Of a DNA stretch of 64,000 nt, positions 7,601-48,009 are shown one piece after another. The position numbers and the translations under genes are program-made. This DNA is from Sphingomicrobium sp. (GTDB lineage: Bacteria; Pseudomonadota; Alphaproteobacteria; Sphingomonadales; Sphingomonadaceae): positions 4,558 to 68,557 of the forward strand of contig JBPCOC010000048.1 in assembly GCA_051000635.1 (NCBI GenBank). Reading direction: 5' to 3'. Numbering within the stretch: position 1 is the stretch's first letter; the number at the start of each line of letters is the position of its first letter. Below the pieces are notes generated by a model, which saw nothing but the letters and a program-made list of their open reading frames with translations, searched no databases and was not told the origin of the DNA.

Positions 7601-9585
7601 CGCATTTCCCTTTGTTTCATGAAGTCGAGCACCCGGGCAGCGACCGCGTCGGGAGTCAGCCCGAAGAATTCGAAGGCATCCTTCGCCGGCGAGGAGACGC
7701 CGAAGCGGTCGACACCGATCCTTAAGCCGTGAAGGCCCGTGTAGCGCTCCCACCCGAAGGTGGTCCCGGCCTCCACCGAAACGCGCAGGATCTCGCGGTT
7801 GGAGACGTCGGGCAGGACGTGCTCGCGATAGTCTTCCGGCTGCGCGTCGAAGCGCTCGGTGCAAGGCATCGATACGACGTCGGCGCCGACCCCCTGCTCT
7901 TCGAGCTGCCCGGCAGCGGCAAGCGCGATCTCAACCTCCGATCCGGTGGCGATGAAGATCACCTTGCGCTCGGAACCTGCAGATTTCAGCCGGTAGGCGC
8001 CGCGCGCGCACAAATTCTCTTTTGCCGGCTCGGTCCGCACGGGGCTGAGGGCCTGGCGGGTCAGCGCGAGGATGCTCGGAGTTTCGCTTTCCAGCGCCAG
8101 CGCCCAGCATTCGGCCGTCTCGACGGCGTCGGCGGGACGGAAAACCTCCAGTCCGGGCATCGCGCGAAGGCTCTGCAGATGCTCGATCGGCTGGTGGGTG
8201 GGTCCGTCCTCGCCGAGCCCGATCGAATCGTGGGTCATGACATAGATGACCGTGGCGCGCTGGAGCGCCGATAGCCGGATTGCCGGCCGCGCATAGTCGG
8301 TGAACACCAGGAACGTCCCGCCGTAGGGTATCACTCCGCCGTGAAGCGCCATCCCGTTCATCGCCGCGGCCATCCCGAACTCGCGGATGCCGTAATAGAT
8401 GTAGCGGCCGCCGTAATTCTCGGCCGTAAGCGGCTCGAGCGCCTTGGTTTTCGTGTTGTTCGAGCCGGTGAGGTCGGCCGACCCGCCGATCGTCGATTCA
8501 ACCACCGGGTTGATCTTCTCGAGCGCCATTTCCGACGCCTTTCGGGTCGCAACCTTCGGCGGCTTTGCAACCAGCTCGTCGAGATAGGGCTGGAGCCAGC
8601 CAGTGTCGGCCTTGCCCGACAGGCGCGCATAGAAGTCGTCGCGCCTGCCGCTTTCGCTCAGGCGCCGCTGCCATTCGCGATGATCGGATTCGCCGCGCCT
8701 GCCGACCTCGCGCCAGGCGGAAAGCACGTCGTCCGGCATTTCGAACGGCTCCGCGTCCCAGCCGAGTTCCTTCCTGGCGGCTGCGACTTCTTCCGCTCCG
8801 AGCGCGGCGCCGTGGGTCGCCTCGGTCCCCTGCTTGGTTGGTGCGCCATAGCCGATGATCGTCTTGCAGCGGATGATCGACGGCCGAGCGTCGGCGAGCG
8901 CGGCATCGAGCGCCCGGCCGACGCTGGCGCTGTCGAGGCCGTCGCATTCGACCGTGTGCCAGGCCGAGGCTGCGTAGCGCGCCATCACGTCTTCGGTGCG
9001 CGACAGCTCGGTCGATCCGTCGATGGTGATCCGGTTGTCGTCCCAAAGCACGATCAGCCGGCCGAGCTTCAAATGCCCGGCGAGTCCGGCGGCTTCGTGG
9101 TTGACGCCCTCCATCAAATCGCCGTCGCCGGCGATCACATAGGTGCGGTGGTCGACCAGATCGTCGCCATAGGTCGCATTGAGGTGCCGCTCGGCGATCG
9201 CCATCCCGACCGCCATCGCCAGCCCCTGCCCGAGCGGGCCGGTGGTCACCTCGACTCCGGGAAGCTCGAAATTTTCCGGATGGCCGGCGCACGGCGATCC
9301 GATTTGCCGGAAGTTCCTGATGTCCTCGATCGTCGGGCGCGAATAGCCGGTCAGGTACAAAAGCGCGTAGATCAGCATCGATCCGTGGCCGGCGGACAGC
9401 ACGAAGCGGTCGCGGTCGGGCCAGTTGGGGTCGGCCGGGTCGAACTTCAGATAGCGTGTGAACAGCGCGGTCGCCGCGTCCGCCATTCCCATCGGCATCC
9501 CTGGATGGCCGCTGTTTGCGGCCTCGACTGCGTCCATGGCCAGGGCGCGGATGGCGTTGGCAAGTCGGCGTTGGGTCGGCTGCAT
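7597..9585 (-). CDS. tkt: Transketolase
   Basis: [31 protein letters not shown] and [16 protein letters not shown]. Confidence 0.97.
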
Positions 9586-9711: not shown

Positions 9712-9879
9712 ATGGACGACGGCGCCCTGTCGGCGGCACTCGAGCGTGCCGAACGCGCTCTGGCGCGGGTCGAGAGCGCCATTGCCCAGCGCAAGCCCGA
9801 GAGCGACGAGGATCTCCGCGACAAGGTTCGCGAGGCGGTCGCCGAGCTCGACCAGCTGATCCGGGAATCGGCGGGCTGA
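9712..9879 (+). CDS. Small coiled-coil protein upstream of zapA (ZapB-like position)
   Basis: 55 aa, helical heptad pattern; its stop overlaps the zapA ATG. Confidence 0.65.
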   Translation: MDDGALSAALERAERALARVESAIAQRKPESDEDLRDKVREAVAELDQLIRESAG

Positions 9880-11020: not shown

Positions 11021-12073
11021 ATGATTAAATCATTCCTCTCGTCCGCCCGACCGTGGCGCAAGCCCCCGCGCGAATTCGTCGCGCTGGGCGGAATTGCGCT
11101 TGTCCCACTGATTACCGCCGCCGGAGTCGCCTGGTCCAGCCCGAACCTCGGAAACGTCGCCGCCGTCAGAGCCGACAAGACAGCTCCGGCACCGCCGCCG
11201 ATGCTCATCCGCAGCATGCAGCCGGGCGACGCGGTCGCTGCGAACCAGAATATCCCGGTCAGCACCGGGCCGAACCCGCCGGCGCAGCCGTTCGCGTTCA
11301 GCGGCGATTCGGCGACGCAAGCCCGGGCGACCGAGTGCCTGGCGAGCGCAATCTATTACGAGGCCGGCCGCGAGAGCGAGAACGGGCAACGGGCTGTCGC
11401 GCAGGTCGTGCTCAACCGTGTCCGGCATCCAGCTTTCCCCTCGACGGTCTGCGGAGTCGTCTACCAGGGTTCGACTCGTGCAACCGGGGCCCAGTTCACC
11501 TTCACAAACGACGGCTCGCTGTACCGCCAGCCGGACTCCGGCGGCTGGGCGCGCTCGCGCCGAATCGCCGAGGCTGCGCTCAACGGAGCAGTGTTCGGCC
11601 CCGTTGGCTGGGCGACCCACTATCACGCGAATTACGTTCTGCCCTATTGGGCCGCAACGCTGGCGAAGAATGCAGTGGTCGGTGCCCATCTTTTTTACCG
11701 CTGGGCCGGCGGCTGGGGACGATCGCCTGCATTCACGCAGCGCTATGCCCGCCAGGAGCCGAGCTCCGCCGCGCTGAAAGCCGCGGCGCTCGCCGCACTC
11801 GCCACCCGCCCGGCTCAAACCGAGCTCGAGCAAATTGCCGGGATTGCGGGCGCAGAGGTCGAGAAGGCGCCCGCTGGCCGGATCGCCGTCCGATTCAACC
11901 TCGAGGCGGCTCGAAAGGCAGTCGAGGAAGCGCCGCGCCAGGACTATGTCGAGAAGGTTGCGGCGTCCGACACCCTTCGCTGGACACTGACGGGAAGCAG
12001 CACGGACGGGGGCCAGAAGCCGCTCGGCCGATCGGCTTCTCCCAGCGGACCTACGGCCGGCGCCGCTGACTAG
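11021..12073 (+). CDS. Cell wall hydrolase (SleB / Hydrolase_2 family)
   Basis: CLASAIYYEAGRE..GQRAVAQVVLNRVRHPAFPSTVCGVVYQG and ATHYHANYVLPYWA. Confidence 0.9.
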   Translation: MIKSFLSSARPWRKPPREFVALGGIALVPLITAAGVAWSSPNLGNVAAVRADKTAPAPPPMLIRSMQPGDAVAANQNIPVSTGPNPPAQPFAFSGDSATQARATECLASAIYYEAGRESENGQRAVAQVVLNRVRHPAFPSTVCGVVYQGSTRATGAQFTFTNDGSLYRQPDSGGWARSRRIAEAALNGAVFGPVGWATHYHANYVLPYWAATLAKNAVVGAHLFYRWAGGWGRSPAFTQRYARQEPSSAALKAAALAALATRPAQTELEQIAGIAGAEVEKAPAGRIAVRFNLEAARKAVEEAPRQDYVEKVAASDTLRWTLTGSSTDGGQKPLGRSASPSGPTAGAAD

Positions 12074-12861
12074 AGCGGCTGGCGGGCGGCCTCGTCTAGC
12101 TTCGGGATCAGCGCCAACTCCACTCGCGTCCGTATCTGATTCAGCCGTGAATCGGCGGCCAGCATGTCGTGCGACAGCAGCCGCGCGGCCCCCATCTGCC
12201 GAGTCATCACCGATGACGTATTGAACGGGCCCGGATCCAGGAGCGGATTTGCGCCGCTGAGAATGACGACCGCCTCGTCGAAAGCGGCGCAGGCGTCGAA
12301 CCAGGTGAGGCTGGGGTCCTCGCGAAGCTTGTTGTGGCAGGCGCGGCTGAACGCCAGCGTTGCGGCCGGGTCTGCAGCCTTGTCGAATTGCACCGCGTCG
12401 GCGACCGCGCGATCGATGACCGCGGCCTGCAGTGGCTCGTCGAAGCTCGTCAGCGGAGAAACCGCCGCCGCGCTGGCTGGCCGATCGGCCGGCGCCGGCC
12501 ACTGGAACGGCATCGCGTAATCCGAACCACCGGACCCGCCGCCACGATCGGTGTTTGCGGCGCCTATGCCTGCGGCGACAACGGCCGCGCCAAGCAGCAT
12601 CCAGCCCGCGCGGGAGCGGCGCCGGGGGCGCGCTCGCGGCTGCACGGGGACCGGCATCCGGCGTCGCGGCCGCACCGGCCCTTCGAAACTCTGCCTGAGC
12701 ACAGTGTAAGCGCGGTTGATTTCCGCCGCCCGGCTGCAATCGCCCCCGGTACGGTCGGGATGGTATCGCTTGATCAGCCGCCGGTAGGCTTCATCCACCT
12801 CGGCACGGCCGGCCTCGGCGCTCAGCCCGAGCGTCGCAAAAGCGGAATTCTCCCCGGTCAT
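12070..12861 (-). CDS. J-domain (DnaJ-like) membrane protein
   Basis: N-terminal J domain with YHPD motif, followed by a hydrophobic segment. Confidence 0.82.
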   Translation of the reverse strand: MTGENSAFATLGLSAEAGRAEVDEAYRRLIKRYHPDRTGGDCSRAAEINRAYTVLRQSFEGPVRPRRRMPVPVQPRARPRRRSRAGWMLLGAAVVAAGIGAANTDRGGGSGGSDYAMPFQWPAPADRPASAAAVSPLTSFDEPLQAAVIDRAVADAVQFDKAADPAATLAFSRACHNKLREDPSLTWFDACAAFDEAVVILSGANPLLDPGPFNTSSVMTRQMGAARLLSHDMLAADSRLNQIRTRVELALIPKLDEAARQPL

Positions 12862-12916
12862 CGCGACGCGTAACTACCGCATGCGCGCCGATTCAGACAG
12901 GCCCATTTTGGAAGAA

Positions 12917-12993
<77 letters not shown>

Positions 12994-13051
12994 GCATTCG
13001 CTGGGGTTCCAGCCAAAGCTGCCTTGACCGGGTCCCGATGAGGCGCGCGAC

Positions 13052-14254
13052 CTAGGTGACGCCCCTTTCACTGTCAACAAGAGCCTCTTCGTTTTCCTCC
13101 TCCTCCCCGACATGGGTCAACGTCCCGTTTTCGAACAGGAATCCGGCGATGTCGGGAGTGCCGGCGGCGGAAAAGACCTGCTTGATGATGATCAACAGCG
13201 GCACTGCGAGAAGCGCCCCCGTCGTGCCCCAAACCCAGGCCCAGAAACTGAGCGAAATCAGGATGGCGAGCGGGTTTATCTTCAGCCTCTCGCCGACCAC
13301 CATCGGCGTAATCAGGTTCGCCTCGAGGAGGTGCAGGCCGGTGAACACCAGCGGCGGGAGCATCGCCGACCAGGCATCGGGGAACACCATCAGCCCGCCG
13401 AGGAACAGCAGCAAGGCCGCTGCGATCGGGCCGAGGTACGGGATGTAGTTCAGGACCGCGACGATACCGCCCCACATCACCGGCGAGGTCATATCCAGCT
13501 GCCACAGGACGAGCGCCGTCACGGCGCCGAGCGACACGTTGATGACCGTGATGGTCCCTATGTAGGTCGACGTCGAATCGACGACCTGCTGGATCACCCG
13601 GGCGGTGGTGAGAGCCCCTTCGAAGCTTCCGCGGCTGACGATCGTGCTCTTCCTCATGGCCGTCCAGCCGGCAAGGAAGAAGAAGATTACCAGCAAGGCG
13701 AAGAACAGCTGGATAATCAGGTGCGGAGCCGAGGTCGCCAGTAGCCCGGACAAGGAGTTCGGAGTTTCGATCGTCACCACCCGGCCGGGGTCGGGCACCG
13801 ACGCGACCTGCGAAAGAATGCCCTCCACGAACCGGTCGAACGCCTTGTAGAGGTCGAGAAGCGGCTCGAGCGTTGCCCGAACCTGGCCGATCCGCTCGGG
13901 GATGAGCGCGATCCAGTCGATTGCCGGAAGGACGATCGACCCGATCGCGAAGACAGCGAACGCCAGGAAGAGCAGCACGCACAGCGCGGCTGCGATTTTC
14001 GAAGGCACTCCATGCCGCTCGAACCATTCGAGCATCGGCACGAGCGCGATCGCAATCACCAGCGCGGCCGTAACGGGAAGGAAGAATTCCGCCCCCGCCC
14101 TCAGCGCGAACGGGAGGGCGACGATAAGCCCGACACCGCCGATCAGGGTCAGCGCCGCCAGCAGCCGGTCGCGCTTGGCGGTGAACGCCTCGGCGAGCGA
14201 GTGCACGTGTTTGGCCTCATCGGCCGCTTCTTGTTTGATCGTCGGGGCGTCCAT
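13052..14254 (-). CDS. AI-2E family transporter
   Basis: Multi-TM protein with LNYIPYLGP, LEANLITPMVVG and WGTTGALLAVP motifs. Confidence 0.9.
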   Translation of the reverse strand: MDAPTIKQEAADEAKHVHSLAEAFTAKRDRLLAALTLIGGVGLIVALPFALRAGAEFFLPVTAALVIAIALVPMLEWFERHGVPSKIAAALCVLLFLAFAVFAIGSIVLPAIDWIALIPERIGQVRATLEPLLDLYKAFDRFVEGILSQVASVPDPGRVVTIETPNSLSGLLATSAPHLIIQLFFALLVIFFFLAGWTAMRKSTIVSRGSFEGALTTARVIQQVVDSTSTYIGTITVINVSLGAVTALVLWQLDMTSPVMWGGIVAVLNYIPYLGPIAAALLLFLGGLMVFPDAWSAMLPPLVFTGLHLLEANLITPMVVGERLKINPLAILISLSFWAWVWGTTGALLAVPLLIIIKQVFSAAGTPDIAGFLFENGTLTHVGEEEENEEALVDSERGVT

Positions 14255-21512: not shown

Positions 21513-22643
21513 ATGACCGCTTCAATCGACCCCGTGGAGCTCGCTCGCCAGCTGATCCGATGCCCGAGCGTCACCCCGGCGCGTGGGCAAGTGTTCGACG
21601 TGCTGGAGGGGATGCTCGAGCCGCTCGGCTTCACAGTCCACCGCTTCGTGCTGGGAGAGCCGCCCGACGGGCCGACCGAGAACATGGTCGCCTTTCGCGG
21701 CGAAGGCTCTCCGCACTTCGGCTTTGCCGGGCACCTCGACGTCGTCCCCCCGGGCGAGGGCTGGGACTGCGACCCGTTCGAAGCGAAAATCGAGGACGGC
21801 CGGCTGATCGGGCGTGGCGCAAACGACATGAAGAGCGCGATCGGCGCCTTCGTGGCGGCCGTCGCACAAGCCAATCAGGCGCGCGGGACCCTGTCGTTCC
21901 TGATCACCGGCGACGAGGAAGGCTATTCGACTTACGGGACTCCGCGGATCATCGACTGGCTGAACGAGCGGCAGATCAGGCCGGACATGATCCTCATCGG
22001 CGAGCCGACCTCGGTCGACCGCCTCGGCGACACCGTGAAGATCGGCCGCCGCGGGTCGGTCAACATGTGGATCGAAGTGCCTGGCCTTCAGGGCCATGTC
22101 GCCTACCCGCACCGGACCGAAAACCCGGTGCCTCCCCTCGCGCGGATCATCGCCGCGCTCGACAGCCTTCACCTCGACGACGGGACCGAGGCGTTCCCTC
22201 CGTCGAACCTGGAGTTCACCGGAGTCGACACGCCGACCCACGCGAGCAACGTCATCCCCGGTTCCGCTACCGCCCAGCTCAACATCCGCTTCAACGACCT
22301 GCACAAGGGCGCCGATCTCGTTCGCAAGGTCGAGGAGATCGCCCAGGGCGAAGCCCCGGGAGCAACGGTCCGGGGGCGAATTTCAGGCGAGGCCTTCCTC
22401 ACTCCGCCTGGCCCGCTCTACGACGTCGTCGTTGAGGCGATCCGCGCGGAAACCGGCGAGGCGCCGGAGCTGTCGACCAGCGGCGGGACGTCCGACGGAC
22501 GGTTCCTGATCCAGCTATGCCCGGTAGTCGATTTCGGCCTTCCCAACGCGACGATGCACAAGGTCGGCGAAACTGCCGCGCTCGAAGATATCCAGGCGCT
22601 GTCGCGAATCTATCAAAGAATTATCGAGAAGGTCGTCGGCTAA
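21513..22643 (+). CDS. dapE: Succinyl-diaminopimelate desuccinylase
   Basis: AGHLDVVPPG, GRGANDMKS, ITGDEEG, GEPT, GRRGS, QGHVAYPH and GGTSDGRF. Confidence 0.95.
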   Translation: MTASIDPVELARQLIRCPSVTPARGQVFDVLEGMLEPLGFTVHRFVLGEPPDGPTENMVAFRGEGSPHFGFAGHLDVVPPGEGWDCDPFEAKIEDGRLIGRGANDMKSAIGAFVAAVAQANQARGTLSFLITGDEEGYSTYGTPRIIDWLNERQIRPDMILIGEPTSVDRLGDTVKIGRRGSVNMWIEVPGLQGHVAYPHRTENPVPPLARIIAALDSLHLDDGTEAFPPSNLEFTGVDTPTHASNVIPGSATAQLNIRFNDLHKGADLVRKVEEIAQGEAPGATVRGRISGEAFLTPPGPLYDVVVEAIRAETGEAPELSTSGGTSDGRFLIQLCPVVDFGLPNATMHKVGETAALEDIQALSRIYQRIIEKVVG

Positions 22644-22647
22644 GTGC

Positions 22648-22679
22648 CTAGTGTCCGCTTTGGGTGGAAAGCGGACATT
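22648..22679 (+). repeat. GTCCGC/GCGGAC palindrome E1
   Basis: CTAGTGTCCGCTTTGGGTGGAAAGCGGACATT; 11/12-bp stem with a GGGTGG loop; 4 nt after the dapE stop. Confidence 0.85.
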
Positions 22680-22791
22680 CAATTTCCAATCGTCGAGCTG
22701 ATACAAGCCTCTAGACTCTGGGATTAACTCGGCAGAGGATAATTCCTGTTTGATCGAGTCGCGGTGAATCAAACCTTGCGCTGGGGGGCGA

Positions 22792-22968
22792 ATGGCGGAC
22801 ATTGACTATCTGCGTAATCGGGCTCGTGCCGAACGCCTCGCAGCGTGCAACTCCTCCGGGTCGATCGTGCGGTTGCGCCACCTCGAGTTTGCCGAAGCTT
22901 ATGAATTTCGCGTCCGTGAGATGGAATGCAGAGGTTCGTCGTTCAGCGATGCCCCTGAACCGGCTTAA
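22792..22968 (+). CDS. Small hypothetical protein (58 aa), Y-x-R-x-RA-x-x-ER family
   Basis: Manual translation MADIDYLRNRARAERLAACNSSGSIVRLRHLEFAEAYEFRVREMECRGSSFSDAPEPA; clearly similar to the ORFs at 24041 and 46717. Confidence 0.7.
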   Translation: MADIDYLRNRARAERLAACNSSGSIVRLRHLEFAEAYEFRVREMECRGSSFSDAPEPA

Positions 22969-23019
22969 CAGACGCAAAGGACTGCGAAGCCAAGTTTAGG
23001 CGTGGCCTCAACCATCTCG

Positions 23020-23052
23020 TAACGTCCGGAATGGGTGGAAAGCGGACATTAG
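23020..23052 (+). repeat. GTCCGC/GCGGAC palindrome E2
   Basis: TAACGTCCGGAATGGGTGGAAAGCGGACATTAG. Confidence 0.85.
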
Positions 23053-23211
23053 CGCCGGTCCCTGCCCTGATCGTCAAGACTGTCAGTGGTGCGAACCGCG
23101 TCGCCACAGGTTCGGTGAAAATCTAATCGCTGCCTGGACGAACATTGCACCTGCCTCGCGCCCCCGTTCGTTCTGCCCCGACGCGAGCTTTGCGTAGGAG
23201 GAGGCCGAAAA

Positions 23212-23808
23212 ATGAATGAGACCCTGTTGATTGTCGTGGCGGTTGTCGCCGTTCTCGCCGTCGCTGGCTGGTGGTTTTACCAGCGGCGCCAGTCGGAGCA
23301 CCTGCGGTCCCGCTTCGGCAGCGAATATGAGCATGAGGTCGAGGAAAAGGGGAGCCGGCGAAAGGCCGAAGCCGAGCTGGCGGATCGGGAAAAACGAGTG
23401 AAGAAGCTGGACATTCGGCCGCTAGAGCCGTCGGCCCGCCGGGGTTTCATAGAGCGCTGGAAGGAAGTCCAGGCGCGGTTCGTAGACGACCCGCCAGCGG
23501 CGGTTGGCGAGGCTGATGATCTGCTCGGCGAGGTGATGCGCACTCGGGGCTATCCGGTCGGCGACTTCGAGCATAGCGCCGGCGATATTTCAGTCGATCA
23601 CCCGCAGGTCGTGAAGCATTACCGCGCAGGTCACGACATCGCCGTGAGGCACGAGCGCGGCGAGGCCAGCACCGAAGAGTTGCGCCAGGCGATGATTCAT
23701 TACCGGGCGCTGTTTGATGAGCTGGTCGAAGATGAAGGTGCGGAGGGTCGCGATAAGCAGGAGACGGCTACCGAGTCCCCCTCACCCGACCGGCGGAAGC
23801 GGTCCTAA
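23212..23808 (+). CDS. Hypothetical membrane-anchored protein (198 aa)
   Basis: Strong SD (AGGAGG); N-terminal TM helix followed by a charged helical domain. Confidence 0.8.
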   Translation: MNETLLIVVAVVAVLAVAGWWFYQRRQSEHLRSRFGSEYEHEVEEKGSRRKAEAELADREKRVKKLDIRPLEPSARRGFIERWKEVQARFVDDPPAAVGEADDLLGEVMRTRGYPVGDFEHSAGDISVDHPQVVKHYRAGHDIAVRHERGEASTEELRQAMIHYRALFDELVEDEGAEGRDKQETATESPSPDRRKRS

Positions 23809-23812
23809 GCCG

Positions 23813-23843
23813 CTAGTGTCCAGAATGGGCTGGAAATCGACGC
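23813..23843 (+). repeat. Degenerate palindrome E3
   Basis: CTAGTGTCCAGAATGGGCTGGAAATCGACGC; same CTAGTGTCC start as E1 and the same 4-nt offset from a TAA stop. Confidence 0.55.
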
Positions 23844-24040
23844 CGGGCCCGCCCCCTAAACATCACCGGTAGGGGGAACGCGGCGTTAACGCCCGGCGGC
23901 GGTTTTTGTGGGGCAACATGCGGGCTTCGGACTCGGTGCTGTAACGAAAGTAAGTTATCCACAGTCATCGCCGTGGGTCATCAAGCGAGGCGGCGACTGA
24001 GAGACCCACGCGCTCCCCGCTTGATATAGGAGTTGGGCAT

Positions 24041-24268
24041 ATGTCCCCTGATGATACCAGCTACTATCGGCAACGCGCAGTTGAGGAGCGAACGAGAGCG
24101 CTTACGGCTGAGTGCGAGGACGTTCGGGAGATCCACGAGGAGCTGGCACGGCTATACGACGCGCTCGTCTTGCAGGACGAGTTGCGGCCGACGATTCGGA
24201 CAATCTTCGGCTTCGGGAAGCTTCGATCGGCTTCGGCACCTGAGAAACTGACTGGATCAATGGCTTAG
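24041..24268 (+). CDS. Small hypothetical protein (75 aa), Y-x-R-x-RA-x-x-ER family
   Basis: AGGAG SD; MSPDDTSYYRQRAVEERTRAL...VREIHEELARLYD. Confidence 0.72.
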   Translation: MSPDDTSYYRQRAVEERTRALTAECEDVREIHEELARLYDALVLQDELRPTIRTIFGFGKLRSASAPEKLTGSMA

Positions 24269-24355
24269 TCTTCAGGATGGTGGTGCCGCCACACAAGCAC
24301 GGAGAGGTACTCGAAACGTAAGCGGTTCCGCCGCTTCTTCGGCAAAGACGGGTCG

Positions 24356-24389
24356 CTAATGTCCGATTTGGGTCGAAAGCGGACGCTAG
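24356..24389 (+). repeat. GTCCGC/GCGGAC palindrome E4
   Basis: CTAATGTCCGATTTGGGTCGAAAGCGGACGCTAG. Confidence 0.85.
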
Positions 24390-24399
24390 CGTGGGCGCG

Positions 24400-26082
24400 T
24401 CAGGCGACCGATTGGGCCTCGCCGCCTTCGTGGCTAACCAGGGCGCGAAATTCCTGCTCCGACATCGGCTCGCCGAACACGAAGCCCTGAACCGTATCGC
24501 AGCCCATCGCCCGAAGGATGTCGGCCTGCGCGCTGTTCTCGACCGCCTCGGCGACGATTTCGCAGCCGACGCCCTTGATCAACTGAACGACGGCCTGGAC
24601 GATCACCCGCGCCTTTTCGGAATCTTCGATTTCCGCGATCAGCGATGGGTCGAGCTTAACCCTGTCGAGCGGCATCGAGCGCAGCCGCGAGAGGTTGGAA
24701 TAACCGGTGCCGAAGTCGTCGATCGCGATTTTGGCGCCGTCCTCGCGAAGCAATGCGATCTCCTCAAGCACCGGTTCGCTCGCCTTCATCGCCGCGCTCT
24801 CGGTGAACTCGAGCTCGACTAGCGACAGCGGCACCTCCTGGTCGGCAAAAGCCTGGCGCAGCCTGGCGAAGAAATCGGCCCGGTCGAGCTGCCTCGGGCT
24901 GACGTTGAACGCGATTCGATGCGCAATCCCGTCGCGGTGCCATGCCCCGAGCATCAGCGCGACCTCGCCAATGACCCATTCTCCGATCTCGGCGACCAGG
25001 CCGGTTCGCTCGGCCACCGGGATGAAGGTTTCAGGCATACGCAACCCGTCGCGCGGGTGGTTCCAGCGCAACAGTGCTTCGGCTCCAACGATTTCTTCGG
25101 TTGCCAGGCTCAGCTGCGGCTGCAGCGCCAGCTGGAATTCGCCACGCTGCACCGCCGCCGTCAGCGCTTTTTCTGTCTCCGCTTTCGAGTGGTGATCGGC
25201 GGAGAGCTCGTCATTGAAAAGGCAATATTGGCCACCGCCGCGCGATTTTGCGTCGTACATCGCGATGTCGGCTGCTCGCATCAGCGATTCGACGCTGGTT
25301 CCATGGTCGGGGCTGACCGAAACACCGATCGAAGCTCCGATGTCGACGCTATGGCCGTAAAGCTCGAACGGCTCCGACACCGCAAGCGCGATTCGCCGAG
25401 CGACGCGTTCGACATCCTCGACGGACTGAACCTGCGGGAAGAAAATTGTGAATTCGTCGCCGGCGAGGCGGGCGAGCAGCGGCCGCCGCGCAACGCTGTC
25501 GCTCAAGTCTGCAGTCACGACCACCCGAAGCCTGTTCGCCACCATGATCAGTAGCTGGTCGCCGCGAGCGTGGCCGAGGCTGTCGTTGACTCCCTTGAAG
25601 CGGTCGAGGTCGACGAACAGCATCGCAGCCCTCGCCCCCGTCGGAATATCCCCCAGAAGCTTGTCCGCTTCGGACCGGAAGTGAAGCCGGTTGGGAAGCG
25701 ATGTCACCGGGTCGTACATTCCAAGAGCATGGGCGTTTTCGATGGAGGAGCGCACTTCAGCGAACAAAGTGTCGATCGCTGCGGCGACCTTGGGCATGAC
25801 TTTTCGGACGATGGGCGGCGGCGGGGAGACGAGGTCTCCGTCTTCGACAGCAAGCAGGCGATCGCCGAGCGCCGCCAGCGCGCGGGCGTTTTCGCTGTTC
25901 GGGCGCTCCGAAGCTATATAGCTGATCAGCAAGCAAAAAGTGCCAGCAGTGATGGCCGCCAGGATCTTCCCGTCGAGCTCGGTGATGTACAGTAGCGCGC
26001 TCAGCGAAAAGATGAACGAGGCCGCTCCAGCCGCGCACGAGAGAATGGCGTTGCTGATCTTCTGGGCCGTGCCTTCTTGCAT
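24400..26082 (-). CDS. GGDEF-EAL protein (putative c-di-GMP phosphodiesterase/cyclase)
   Basis: Two N-terminal TM segments; DPVTSLPNR, DLDRFKGVND and RLAGDEF; EALLRW and DDFGTGYS. Confidence 0.92.
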   Translation of the reverse strand: MQEGTAQKISNAILSCAAGAASFIFSLSALLYITELDGKILAAITAGTFCLLISYIASERPNSENARALAALGDRLLAVEDGDLVSPPPPIVRKVMPKVAAAIDTLFAEVRSSIENAHALGMYDPVTSLPNRLHFRSEADKLLGDIPTGARAAMLFVDLDRFKGVNDSLGHARGDQLLIMVANRLRVVVTADLSDSVARRPLLARLAGDEFTIFFPQVQSVEDVERVARRIALAVSEPFELYGHSVDIGASIGVSVSPDHGTSVESLMRAADIAMYDAKSRGGGQYCLFNDELSADHHSKAETEKALTAAVQRGEFQLALQPQLSLATEEIVGAEALLRWNHPRDGLRMPETFIPVAERTGLVAEIGEWVIGEVALMLGAWHRDGIAHRIAFNVSPRQLDRADFFARLRQAFADQEVPLSLVELEFTESAAMKASEPVLEEIALLREDGAKIAIDDFGTGYSNLSRLRSMPLDRVKLDPSLIAEIEDSEKARVIVQAVVQLIKGVGCEIVAEAVENSAQADILRAMGCDTVQGFVFGEPMSEQEFRALVSHEGGEAQSVA

Positions 26083-27843: not shown

Positions 27844-28493
27844 TCTTCCTCGTCAGTCTCGACAAGAAGCCAATTGGGGTCGCGCGCGGCGATGTCGCGA
27901 CGAAAAGTCCACAAATCGCGGGTCTGGACGGCATCGCTCATCGACCCCGCGACCACCTCGCCGGCCTTGTTTTTGGTGATGGCGGCAATGTCGGCCTCGA
28001 ACCTGACCGTAACGAACGCCACGGTCTGCTCGAGCGAGGCGGCCGAGATCAGTGCCTGCTCGATGTTCACCAGGCGATTGTCGAGAATCAACTGCTCTTT
28101 CTCGCGCTGCTCGAGGGCCGAGGCGAACGCCTTATAGACATTGTCGTCGACGTGCGGGCGAAGTGTGTCGAGATCGCCCTTCCAAAACGCTTCCAAAATC
28201 ATCCGGTAGGCGGCCTGGGCGCCTTCGAGGAACCGCGCGACATCGAACGTCGGGTCGGCGGCGAGCAGCGCCCGAACGCCTGGCCCCGCCGTCGGCAGAT
28301 AGGCGAGTTCGGAACCGTCGGTTGCCGGCTGGGGCGTCGGCGTCGATGGGGCGGGACGAGTATCGACTCGCGCATCGGGGTCGGCCGGCTTGAGGATCGG
28401 CTGCTGCTCATGTCCAGTGCGCTCGCCGAGCACGCTGTACAGGCGTAGGCCGATAAAGAGCGCCACGAGCGCGAGGATGATGATGACTGTCAA
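27840..28493 (-). CDS. Tim44/TimA family protein
   Basis: RLYSVLGERTG, FLEGAQAAYRMILEAF and WTFRRD...PNWLL. Confidence 0.88.
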   Translation of the reverse strand: MTVIIILALVALFIGLRLYSVLGERTGHEQQPILKPADPDARVDTRPAPSTPTPQPATDGSELAYLPTAGPGVRALLAADPTFDVARFLEGAQAAYRMILEAFWKGDLDTLRPHVDDNVYKAFASALEQREKEQLILDNRLVNIEQALISAASLEQTVAFVTVRFEADIAAITKNKAGEVVAGSMSDAVQTRDLWTFRRDIAARDPNWLLVETDEEE

Positions 28494-46716: not shown

Positions 46717-46923
46717 ATGGAGAGCGATACTGAGTATTTTCGGAGGCGGGCCTCTGAGGAACGCACGGCCGCACTTCAGGCGCGAGATACGCGAGTGCGG
46801 AAGGCGCATCTGGAGATGGCGGAACGATACGAAGATCTCGTCCGAGCTATTGCGGGACATGAGCAGGCTCTCGGCCTGCGATCAATCGCGTCGCCTCAAG
46901 CAGCTCCGGGATACTGGCGATAA
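46717..46923 (+). CDS. Small hypothetical protein (68 aa), Y-x-R-x-RA-x-x-ER family
   Basis: MESDTEYFRRRASEERTAAL...VRKAHLEMAERYE; 6 nt after the hemA stop. Confidence 0.72.
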   Translation: MESDTEYFRRRASEERTAALQARDTRVRKAHLEMAERYEDLVRAIAGHEQALGLRSIASPQAAPGYWR

Positions 46924-46954
46924 AGAAGACTCGGCTGACGGTGCTGCCGTTAGC

Positions 46955-46988
46955 CTAATGTTGGCCGTGGGTGGAAAGCGGACACTAG
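46955..46988 (+). repeat. GTCCGC/GCGGAC palindrome E5 (left arm diverged)
   Basis: CTAATGTTGGCCGTGGGTGGAAAGCGGACACTAG. Confidence 0.8.
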
Positions 46989-47011
46989 CGCTTGGCGCCC
47001 TGCAGCTCGGG

Positions 47012-47638
47012 ATGGGGAGCCATGTAAAGATTCGTGAGAAGCAGGTCCTGCTTCAGGAGCTCCAGCACCGTGTCGCTAACAGCCTGCAGATCATTGCAAG
47101 CGTGTTGATGCAAAGCGCCAAGCGCGTTCAGTCCGAGGAGACCCGTCTCCATCTTCACGACGCCCACAGCCGGGTCATGTCGATCGCGATGCTTCAAAAG
47201 CAGCTGGCGGTCACGCAGCTTAAATCCGTTGAGCTACAGCCTTATTTCGAGGACCTGTGCCGAAGCATTTCCGCTTCCATGATTGACGATCCACAACGGA
47301 TCGCTCTCGAGACGATCGTGGATGATACGAGCACAAACTCTGATGTGTCGGTCAGCATGGGCCTGATCGTCACGGAATTGGTGATCAACGCGATCAAGCA
47401 TGCGTTCCCGGATCGGGCCGCTGGCGGCAAGATCATTGTGTCTTTTGCGGCAGACGAGGGCGGCTGGCTGCTGTCCGTGTCGGATGATGGCGCAGGAATA
47501 CCGGTCGGCGAGGAAGAGGGAAAGCCGGGTCTTGGAACAGGGATCGTCGAGGCCTTGTCCAGGCAACTTGAGGCGAGTGTGACCGTGCTCAACGCAAATC
47601 CGGGGACTCGCGTGGAAGTTCGACACGACCAAAGCTGA
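47012..47638 (+). CDS. Sensorless HisKA_2-type histidine kinase (possibly a truncated remnant)
   Basis: ELQHRVANSLQ H-box, ELVINAIKHAF, DDGAG and GLGTGIV. No PAS/GAF/TM region upstream; start uncertain (46958 or 47012). Confidence 0.75.
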   Translation: MGSHVKIREKQVLLQELQHRVANSLQIIASVLMQSAKRVQSEETRLHLHDAHSRVMSIAMLQKQLAVTQLKSVELQPYFEDLCRSISASMIDDPQRIALETIVDDTSTNSDVSVSMGLIVTELVINAIKHAFPDRAAGGKIIVSFAADEGGWLLSVSDDGAGIPVGEEEGKPGLGTGIVEALSRQLEASVTVLNANPGTRVEVRHDQS

Positions 47639-47660
47639 GGCAATCTACCGCTCGCCTACG

Positions 47661-47691
47661 TTATGTCTGCTTTCGGTCGGAGGCAGACATT
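47661..47691 (+). repeat. Palindrome E6 (compensated variant)
   Basis: TTATGTCTGCTTTCGGTCGGAGGCAGACATT; GTCTGC/GCAGAC replaces GTCCGC/GCGGAC. Confidence 0.7.
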
Positions 47692-47720
47692 CTGTACCCA
47701 CAATCTGGCGATTATGGGCC

Positions 47721-47906
47721 TTAGGGCTTGGAGCCCTCTGAGCTGGACTTGCGTAGCTGCATAATCTGTGACCGTATCTGGGGCCCCTTGAGGTGCTCGA
47801 TGACCCGCGAATACCCTTCACGGCTCAGTGTCCTTTGCAGCTCCTCAATCGATCGGCATTCAGGCGCAAGTAGAAACGCCCTTTCAATGATACTGACCCC
47901 CTGCAT
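47721..47906 (-). CDS. Small hypothetical protein (61 aa)
   Basis: MQGVSIIERAFLLAPECRSIEELQRTLSREGYSRVIEHLKGPQIRSQI; sits between E6 and E7; start could be 47960. Confidence 0.6.
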   Translation of the reverse strand: MQGVSIIERAFLLAPECRSIEELQRTLSREGYSRVIEHLKGPQIRSQIMQLRKSSSEGSKP

Positions 47907-47980
47907 AGATCGATGATCCAATTGATGGCTCGTTCGAGCAACAGGAATTTGCCCGCTCAATGTTTTTTGCGACCGGCTGC

Positions 47981-48009
47981 AATGTCCGCAATGGGTGGAA
48001 AGCGGACGT
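47981..48009 (+). repeat. GTCCGC/GCGGAC palindrome E7
   Basis: AATGTCCGCAATGGGTGGAAAGCGGACGT. Confidence 0.85.

Follow-up and report, generated by a model that had tools for sequence, protein, structure and literature searches.

What marks off the single-gene units of a small accessory island in the genome of a soil Sphingomicrobium? The island lies between dapE and a convergent GGDEF-EAL gene (the EAL gene below) and carries four palindromes, E1 to E4. It was analysed within a stretch of 64,000 nucleotides, C10:4558-68557, which we call the window. The genome under study (G000; G numbers denote genomes, C numbers contigs of G000 and L numbers other loci or contigs) comprises 2.36 Mb in 74 contigs, is 99.7% complete and has a GC content of 64% (64.3%). 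The GTDB genus Sphingomicrobium, from soil, takes in Sphingomonas daechungensis, and an exact-protein look-up of DapE returned no other assembly of the species of G000. A preliminary description, made from the sequence alone, had placed the palindromes in one orientation at both island edges and between the units. The coordinates were exact and all four lie on the + strand, with E1 beginning 4 nt past the dapE TAA and E4 stopping 10 nt short of the stop of the EAL gene (TCA at 24400, minus strand).

The palindromes belong to an element family that is restricted to Sphingomicrobium, has not previously been described, and marks the joints between gene modules in accessory DNA. The family clusters in lineage-specific DNA, is co-oriented locally, and forms arrays of G...C polarity as well as C-then-G doublets, and its modules recur elsewhere together with the element. 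On this evidence we consider it an evenly balanced proposition that E1 to E4 are recombination sites of an undescribed module-capture system, and we think that the sites are recognised by a putative trans-acting recombinase.

Two site types in a locally co-oriented family

Copies were counted with a profile built from the clearest examples (nhmmer, E < 0.01). G000 holds 160 of them, or 217 when the search is anchored on the right half of the element; with a reversed pattern as control the count was 0. The consensus is CTAATGTCCGC(TTT/AAT)GGGT(G/C)GAAAGCGGACAYTAG, an asymmetric palindrome of ~35 nt with individual copies of 34-40 nt. A genome-wide family that brackets modules in co-oriented arrays thus emerged from the profile scan that had been suggested for this locus. 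The copy number is a lower bound: many contigs of G000 stop within an element, which breaks the assembly graph, so the arrays are longer and the copies more numerous than tallied. An element stands at the start or end of many contigs (for example at the end of C5 and the starts of C14 and C15), and a 127-nt end is identical in three. In practice, the element disrupts short-read assemblies of soil Sphingomicrobium genomes.

Relatives were searched in 25 genomes of the genus, G000 included, and in 16 other genera of the order. Copies are present in 20 of the 25 genomes (0-142 each), the carriers including G002, G007, G016 and G020, and the 16 other genera yielded 1 match. A plasmid of S. daechungensis and several IMG/VR contigs, among them a P4-like one, also carry full copies. 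About 12 of 19 IMG/VR stretches carry extended palindromic copies, several with two or three in co-orientation, and bare 17-mer matches are about as numerous as estimated by chance for the size of the collection. A phage collection gave no match to the element. A known RNA was rejected, as Rfam gave no match at E <= 1 in window 22400-24600 and only a tRNA across 68 kb of arrays. In the literature no account of such a repeat in Sphingomonadaceae was found, and the motif string matched unrelated primer sequences only.

The loop and the right arm are the most conserved parts of the element. In the island E1, E2 and E4 are clear copies, but the relatedness claimed for all four palindromes extends to E3 only in decayed form. 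The 24-nt core GTCCGCTTTGGGTGGAAAGCGGAC matches E1, E2 and E4, with the mismatches listed in Table 1, and also E7, elsewhere in the window; 100 shuffles gave 0 matches. E1 and E4 form strong DNA hairpins (z about -4) and E2 and E3 do not. Maintenance of the hairpin by compensatory change was rejected, since the paired fractions lie near the expectation for independently varying arms. The ends of the element (CTAR/YTAG) are inverted, not direct, and the arms could act as the inverted repeats that, together with a target-site duplication, define miniature inverted-repeat transposable elements (MITEs).

Neighbouring copies less than 8 kb apart are co-oriented in a ratio of 92:1, irrespective of gene strand. 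Beyond 8 kb the ratio of same to different orientation is 8:4, and beyond 20 kb in G016, which has long contigs, it is 6:5. Replication direction was rejected as the source of orientation because GC skew is weak and loosely associated with it (96 vs 64) and long-range orientation is random; gene strand was rejected on a contig-level test (20 vs 13). Co-orientation that is local and random at distance excludes a rule based on replication direction or transcription, and suggests that each cluster is built by a local process.

The variable base of the loop, GGGTSG, is G in 84 copies (G-type) and C in 69 (C-type), and the two types are not distributed at random. When arrays are read along the direction of the element, 26 of 30 open with a G-type site, a figure reached by 0 of 5,000 label shuffles, and 20 of 23 end in a C-type site (1 of 5,000). 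Among 17 solitary copies, 13 are C-type (36 of 5,000). Typical arrays read GC, GGC, GGGGC or CG-CG-CG-G-G-G-C, and the same G...C pattern was seen by eye in the hit lists of G016 and G020. The island itself reads G(E1)-G(E2)-g*(E3)-C(E4). Such strict array polarity is not predicted by a passive repeat.

Tandem doublets, which are direct with a period of 35-37 nt, run C then G in 17 of 22 cases and G then C in 0 (0 of 5,000 shuffles). The first members form a subfamily, C-type with the word GCAGAC, which is found almost exclusively at internal array positions, and the doublet is conserved as a 66-72-nt unit across species. A pattern TAA-N4-CTAGTGTCC reported for E1 and E3 is indeed present at both. 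However, the spacing at E3 is there because it is the junction of a relic tandem doublet, and it does not represent an independent rule. In a set of 156 copies, 127 have CTAATG and 22 have CTAACG as the 5' word, and the 3' TTAG word is preceded by A in 102 and by G in 35. Linkage equilibrium holds among the common variants, except for AA/TT, which behaves as a unit, and the association of C-type with GCAGAC; the crossover position is not placed thereby.

From these regularities we infer recombination at the sites, and with it a crossover position, circles and an enzyme. A circular module with one G-type site would recombine with any resident chromosomal site, and the exchange would fall immediately to the left of the variable loop base, in WWT-GGGT or next to it. 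The incoming G would then always go to the left product, and the loop base of the target would stay in the right one. Repeated insertions at a C-type landing pad would build up several G-type sites in succession with a single C-type site at the end, all co-oriented and with genes on either strand; once every module was removed, a lone C-type site would remain. C-then-G doublets would arise from modules with a C-type element of their own next to the G site. This single-crossover insertion model accounts for local co-orientation, indifference to gene strand, G runs with a C end, solitary C sites and the homology boundaries of a paralogous pair on C15 and C32 (below), and the dapE/EAL island, G-G-g*-C with three modules, fits the scheme.

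The pair on C15 and C32 is 90% identical. On the left, the homology starts within the site, the two members having the G loop and right arm in common and different left arms. On the right, it runs precisely as far as the 3' CACTAG of the site, the loop base of which is G in one member and C in the other. Such boundaries are compatible with a crossover to the left of the loop base. Among older pairs of paralogues, at 70-80% identity, divergence is too great for the homology ends to be placed. No flanking repeat or target duplication is general to the arrays, 2 of 26 showing 11 nt. In its full form the proposal is of gene-module capture in Sphingomicrobium without an integron integrase, through two-state ~35-bp sites, with C-type landing pads at chromosomal, island and plasmid loci, G-type sites on circular modules and an array that records its own history. 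We advance this fuller picture tentatively, as a possibility that falls somewhat short of probable.

Modules in the flexible genome

The dapE/EAL island is lineage-specific accessory DNA. The two flanking genes were located in 30 genomes of the genus and at further loci from the GTDB species collection. In ~20 related species their stop codons overlap by 4 nt (CTAG/CTAA) and the island genes are not there, which bears out the accessory status first proposed for the island. The island has a GC content of 60.3%, that of the genome being 64.3%. Insertions exactly at this junction were also seen in eight other species (3,207 bp in G042, 3,709 bp in G007, 1,944 bp in G008, ~700 bp each in G002 and S. 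daechungensis, 268 bp in G014, ~1,270 bp at L108 and ~1,170 bp at L060), and tblastx detected no homology between them and the G000 island. Eight unrelated insertions at the same point identify the dapE/EAL junction as a recurrent insertion hot spot.

Across G000 the copies form 53 clusters on 40 contigs with a median spacing of 915 nt, and for 138 of the 160 another copy is no more than 3 kb away. All but 18 copies (142 of 160 lying outside called genes) are intergenic. The sites bracket single genes or small groups, on either strand, encoding 36-900 aa. The bracketed genes have a lower GC content (61.7% vs 64.7%) and a lower codon score (p ~1e-21), and the element is a practical flag for this flexible gene content, which makes up 5.3% of G000.

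The flanks of 16 clusters were used as joined queries against five relatives. Both flanks are conserved at C9a, C9b, C29, C60 and the second island of the window, and together with dapE/EAL this makes six loci at each of which relatives lack the bracketed DNA or have DNA of a different length; element-free G022 conforms to this in the joined-flank search. The remaining clusters have no adjacent flank match on one or both sides. Empty sites are directly visible in G006 and G016. At the second island the flanking core genes are adjacent (~45 nt apart) in G016 and 400-3,040 nt apart in others. Almost no solitary element was found between adjacent core genes in the tested loci. Because bracketed DNA is missing or replaced at every locus with conserved flanks, the element is tied to the flexible genome.

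The same modules occur at other loci, in other order, again with the element. ORF198, between E2 and E3, is a real and widespread gene with more than 7,600 homologues, the best of them at 79-93% identity, and eight in that range occupy at least 6 different neighbourhoods. The homologue at L159 sits downstream of gshB, likewise in an array of the element, and the first G-type site there borders directly on the gshB stop, as E1 does on dapE. A G-type copy stands behind the gene, at the position of E3, in G000, L159 and L165; it is clearer in L159 and L165 than E3 is, and in L165 it comes immediately next. A relic right arm lies behind the gene in G000, L159 and L160 (GAAAGCGGACCTRAGCCG in the latter two), and L165 retains a CCTAAGC junction only. 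This relic agrees with the doublet junctions found genome-wide.

The other two modules of the island also have counterparts. The ORF58 region (window 22709-22969) is 74.7% identical to DNA that precedes an ORF198 homologue in the metagenome contig L163. The ORF75 region (window 23955-24163) is 73.6% identical to L165 1051-1257, which lies 1 kb upstream of an ORF198 homologue and is followed by a C-type site. ORF58-like and ORF75-like DNA thus accompany ORF198 homologues in an arrangement other than that of G000. ORF75 has paralogues in G000 as well: a 68-aa ORF at window 46717-46923 (aligned over 46726-46911; 41% identity, E = 1.7e-6) and others on C63 and C37. ORF58 and ORF75 gave no BLASTP alignment with each other at E <= 100. 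The preliminary description had assigned one recognisable ORF to each interval; this is right for ORF198, but ORF75 is marginal and ORF58 falls under the coding threshold, though the DNA of both is conserved elsewhere.

Known systems, candidate enzymes and competing explanations

The arrays work most like integron cassettes and look most like repetitive extragenic palindromes (REPs), yet they lack the defining features of both, and also those of pdif modules and of IS200/IS605 derivatives. In common with integrons and with clusters of attC sites lacking an integron integrase (CALINs), they have co-oriented imperfect palindromes between small accessory modules, polar arrays, some of them without a nearby recombinase, and a module that recurs elsewhere with its own downstream site. 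The sites themselves are different. The element is 34-40 nt long, against 57-141 nt for attC, and most copies lack the R''/R' core words RYYYAAC...GTTRRRY that, with a bulged hairpin, characterise attC, GTT occurring in ~22% and AAC in ~14% of copies. Unlike those of integrons, the genes lie on either strand, the modules extend to 900-aa genes or several genes, and the arrays are found at 40 or more loci, not at one platform. Unlike attI, the odd site here closes the array on its 3' side, and a single loop base sets it apart. With no IntI and no attC architecture, integron membership was rejected. The Vibrio VCR repeats, which are attC sites, were at first read as REP-like. Cury et al. 2016 are said to have reported integrons absent from Alphaproteobacteria.

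REPs, together with bacterial interspersed mosaic elements (BIMEs) and REP doublets forming hairpins (REPINs), resemble the element: they are lineage-specific, extragenic imperfect palindromes of 20-40 nt that number in the hundreds, frequently lie at gene 3' ends and in some cases form clusters. However, the element occurs without a REP-associated tyrosine transposase (RAYT), its doublets are direct and in fixed C-then-G order whereas REPINs are inverted, and its arrays are co-oriented rather than alternating. It is also concentrated in accessory DNA, and its 5' end is CTAR where that of REPs is GTAG. Of the integron- or REP-like layout suggested at the outset, the co-oriented module arrays stand up, but membership of the integrons proper or of the classical REPs does not.

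The pdif modules of Acinetobacter plasmids, which are Xer-exploiting elements, are likewise bounded by short palindromic sites with genes in either orientation, the host enzyme being supplied in trans. Their sites are dif-like (XerC arm, 6-nt spacer, XerD arm) and alternate in direction, whereas the element faces one way and is unrelated to the one dif-like sequence of G000. That sequence, AGTCTGATAATATGTATTATGTAAAAC (C13:8567), is likely the chromosomal dif site; it shares no arm with the element, and XerCD/dif-like sites were rejected. IS200/IS605 elements and their palindrome-associated transposable element (PATE) derivatives have similar co-oriented subterminal hairpins of two types at their ends, parallel to the G-left/C-right arrangement, and tandem units would give C-G junctions. 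However, they need a Y1 transposase, which is missing here, and they leave several G sites before one C unexplained; nor is the orientation of the element tied to replication direction.

Enzyme searches covered 61 genomes of the genus. The Y1/RAYT family PF01797 had 0 members in G000 and was found in 4 of the 61, none of them element-rich, and was detected in control genomes; mobilisation by RAYT or HUH enzymes was rejected, PF01797 being missing from G000 and the other element-rich genomes. No protein in the 61 genomes, G000 included, passed the TIGR02249 cut-off for an integron integrase. G000 encodes nine tyrosine recombinases, namely XerC, XerD and seven phage-type integrases, several of the latter in array-bearing islands. 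In an NCBIfam scan of six of them (XerC, XerD, those of C19 and C32 and two on C50) the IntI model scored far under its cut-off, and those of C52, C56 and C14 were covered by the whole-genome search. The integrase beside the C50 array was rejected as the enzyme of the system, being unique to G000. As first described, then, the arrays have no linked recombinase and the motif matches no named system. The element-rich genome G020 encodes a 308-aa Xer/IntI-like frame (C80:1425-2225) that covers positions 6-184 and 237-315 of the integron-integrase model, with the middle part missing; the frame is partly present in G046 and not in G000.

The chief rival to a module-capture system is a RAYT-less, REP- or MITE-like selfish palindrome whose new copies enter intergenic DNA close by and are tolerated chiefly where the DNA is dispensable and recently acquired, the modules being the genes between insertions and the doublets arising from new copies inserted beside old ones. 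We judge this rather unlikely, although much about the element recalls such a repeat: it is short, extragenic and palindromic, has many copies and a mild preference for gene 3' ends (38 convergent vs 18 divergent gaps), and swings between 0 and 142 copies in sister species with many copies decayed. Conservation of doublets as units whose first members form a subfamily, and insertions at the same hot spots in element-free species, point the same way. Neither G000, at 99.7% completeness, nor the other element-rich genomes, however, has a Y1/RAYT gene. Copying directed by strand or replication leaves unexplained an orientation that is 92:1 locally, independent of gene strand and random at long range, and G runs ending in C and solitary C-type copies lack an obvious basis in transposition. 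The doublets are direct, not inverted, the common variants are unlinked and form no subfamilies except the doublet-first type, and single copies between adjacent core genes are nearly absent from the tested loci. A selfish repeat of this kind would still be unusual, a REP-like family that spreads without RAYT and in ordered direct doublets, and would bear on how such repeats move.

It is improbable, in our view, that the element is a passive passenger, an mRNA-end or DNA-structure feature of an accessory gene pool that circulates on plasmids and integrative islands, with arrays inherited and eroded as blocks and modules entering by ordinary homologous or integrase-mediated recombination in their flanks. 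Arrays do lie in tRNA/integrase islands (a tRNA and an integrase on C14; integrases on C19, C32, C50 and C56), C50 and C57 have a two-module block in common, and the S. daechungensis plasmid and P4-like and other IMG/VR contigs carry copies. Two islets have a duplicated gene 3' end, in the manner of integrative elements, and a downstream element is retained by each gene across loci, which would be expected of any closely linked feature. Against this, the orientation of the element has no consistent relation to transcription of the adjacent gene and no T-run follows the hairpin, so a role at RNA ends is unlikely; an intrinsic terminator was rejected on the same two grounds, the missing T-run having been established at E1 to E4. 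The co-orientation of whole arrays whose genes are not co-oriented, and their G...C polarity, would also be left unexplained. A still more remote alternative, which we regard as very improbable, supposes that foreign DNA is coated by a chromosome-architecture or silencing protein with the conserved 16-mer TGGGTSGAAAGCGGAC as its binding site, and that the arrays reflect selection for such sites in acquired regions. Conservation of loop and right arm far beyond the needs of pairing, the scarcity of compensatory change and the enrichment of copies in low-GC acquired DNA are consistent with protein binding. However, no mechanism is apparent by which near-identical 35-nt sites would arise de novo at module joints, the polarity and doublets are not accounted for, and there is no candidate protein.

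Several observations also weigh against recombination at the sites. No excision and no circle was observed, nor any presence/absence polymorphism whose breakpoint fell within a site. The gain and loss of genes at hairpins put forward in the preliminary description is matched by the recurrence of modules with the element, but the sequence that the ORF198 module shares with other contexts starts 80-90 nt to the right of E2 rather than at E2 itself (at window 23130-23199 for 7 of the 8 loci, L163 being clearly divergent). At the dapE/EAL junction 0 of the 8 insertions in other species contain a copy passing the E < 0.01 cut-off, and those of G007 (E = 0.0018) and G014 (E = 0.18) have merely a weak or partial match, at the EAL end; gene gain there therefore needs no full palindrome. 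In the element-free genome G022, too, these hot spots hold variable DNA. Not every island edge coincides with a site: in the second island a module comes ahead of E5. Moreover, 13 modules have a C-type site on the left, and two element-bounded islets lie between duplicates of the 3' end of the upstream gene. The swings in copy number and the decay of many copies described above are themselves selfish-repeat-like. A candidate enzyme was not found in the searches of G000 and the genus: no recurrent recombinase or nuclease family lies near the sites among the families found, and instead of the co-occurring tyrosine recombinase or HUH/Y1 gene that had been envisaged, the only tyrosine recombinases common across the genus appear to be XerC and XerD.

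If the sites are indeed those of a capture system, bacteria would have a new way to gather and shuffle genes, unlike integrons in site length, strand tolerance, occurrence at dozens of loci and enzyme, and an integron-like function would exist in Alphaproteobacteria, a class reported to be without integrons. The G...C polarity makes precise predictions, namely a crossover beside the loop base and circles with a single G-type site, and a cultured carrier exists in Sphingomonas daechungensis (KACC 18115 / JCM 17887), the species with copies on its plasmid.

Features of the locus and further observations

The features of the island, its flanks and the second array of the window are collected in Table 1.

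Table 1. Features of the dapE/EAL island and of the second array, in window coordinates
Feature	Position	Strand	Remarks
dapE (succinyl-diaminopimelate desuccinylase, M20 peptidase), left core flank	21513..22643	+	Pfam Peptidase_M20 and M20_dimer; single match in 29/31 genus genomes
Island, 1,756 bp, lineage-specific, inserted at ancestrally overlapping convergent stops	22644..24399	.	gap of -4 nt in ~20 related species
E1, G-type (loop GGGTGG), first in array	22648..22681	+	0 core mismatches; nhmmer E=2e-13; hairpin -10.4 kcal/mol, z=-4.2
ORF58 module, coding status doubtful	22792..22968	+	coding score under threshold; no Pfam/NCBIfam family
E2, G-type, left arm degenerate	23020..23054	+	3 core mismatches; nhmmer E=1.7e-11; fold no better than shuffled sequence
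Leader/promoter-like stretch of ORF198 module (TTGCACCTG...CGTTCGTTCTG...AGGAGG)	23140..23211	+	aligned upstream of homologues, conservation varying
ORF198, membrane-anchored protein of a large uncharacterised family, module cargo	23212..23808	+	coding score 47; no Pfam/NCBIfam family
Relic right arm of first doublet member (GGAAGCGGTCCTAAGCCG)	23795..23812	+	overlaps last codons and stop of ORF198; same relic behind homologues elsewhere
E3, decayed G-type, second doublet member (CTAGTGTCCAGAATGGGCTGGAAATCGACGCC)	23813..23845	+	nhmmer E=0.69 over 12 nt only; no hairpin
ORF75 module	24041..24268	+	coding score marginal; no Pfam/NCBIfam family
E4, C-type (loop GGGTCG), closes array	24356..24389	+	2 core mismatches; nhmmer E=3.2e-13; hairpin -10.4 kcal/mol, z=-3.9
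GGDEF-EAL gene, right core flank	24400..26082	-	Pfam GGDEF and EAL; orthologue convergent with dapE throughout genus
Second array: E5, G-type, 46954-46991; E6, C-type, GCAGAC variant, ~47661-47693; E7, G-type, 47980-48009	46954..48009	+	

The ~70-nt leader of ORF198 is probably a promoter or a 5'-untranslated regulatory element. It consists of TTGCACCTG, a spacer of 12-14 nt, CGTTCGTTCTG, GACGCGA..GCG and a Shine-Dalgarno sequence, and it is recognisable in most of the eight contexts (L158-L165), L163 being divergent.

The genes bracketed elsewhere in G000 are accessory cargo of an ordinary kind. They encode TIR-TPR proteins, HWE histidine kinases, amidohydrolases (Amidohydro_2), hydrolases of the beta-lactamase fold, AraC regulators, GtrA, a desaturase and a SWIB protein, and include a groEL-containing stretch. 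One protein family has eight paralogues, five of which lie within 160 nt of an element (C63:7505-9403, C4:3195-5354, C31:24831-26813, C14:190-2451 and C27:11828-13471). The one member of this family that was scanned, C63:7505-9403 (632 aa), has a TIR domain and TPR, and is possible defence-type cargo.

The groEL stretch, on C14 (L038) at 11165-13562, comprises groEL (Cpn60, Pfam) and a small upstream ORF and forms a module with a C-type site on one side and a C-G doublet on the other. C67 and C36 carry copies of it at 80-88% identity, and no other part of the 14-kb array on C14 is conserved in relatives. Inside the same array a stretch of ~140 nt (7944-8084) belongs to no Rfam family, is no tRNA, and overlaps a 71-aa ORF without a Pfam match; it recurs at 76-83% identity in at least 22 of 31 genomes of the genus, typically as a single match.

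At the two islets with a duplicated gene end (C9:8440-8486 vs 9780-9833, and C55 at ~27640 vs ~28150-28300) the last 11-17 nt of the upstream core gene are directly duplicated, for example as AAATACGGGGCKTAR. This is the product expected of integrative elements that target a gene's 3' end and restore it.

On the Duffyella gerundensis plasmid NZ_CP073264.1 (L167) a single palindrome at 2501-2533, between SIR2 and TraI-domain genes, is 91% identical to the G-type element, and weaker doublet-like matches occur in Pantoea and Cronobacter plasmids.

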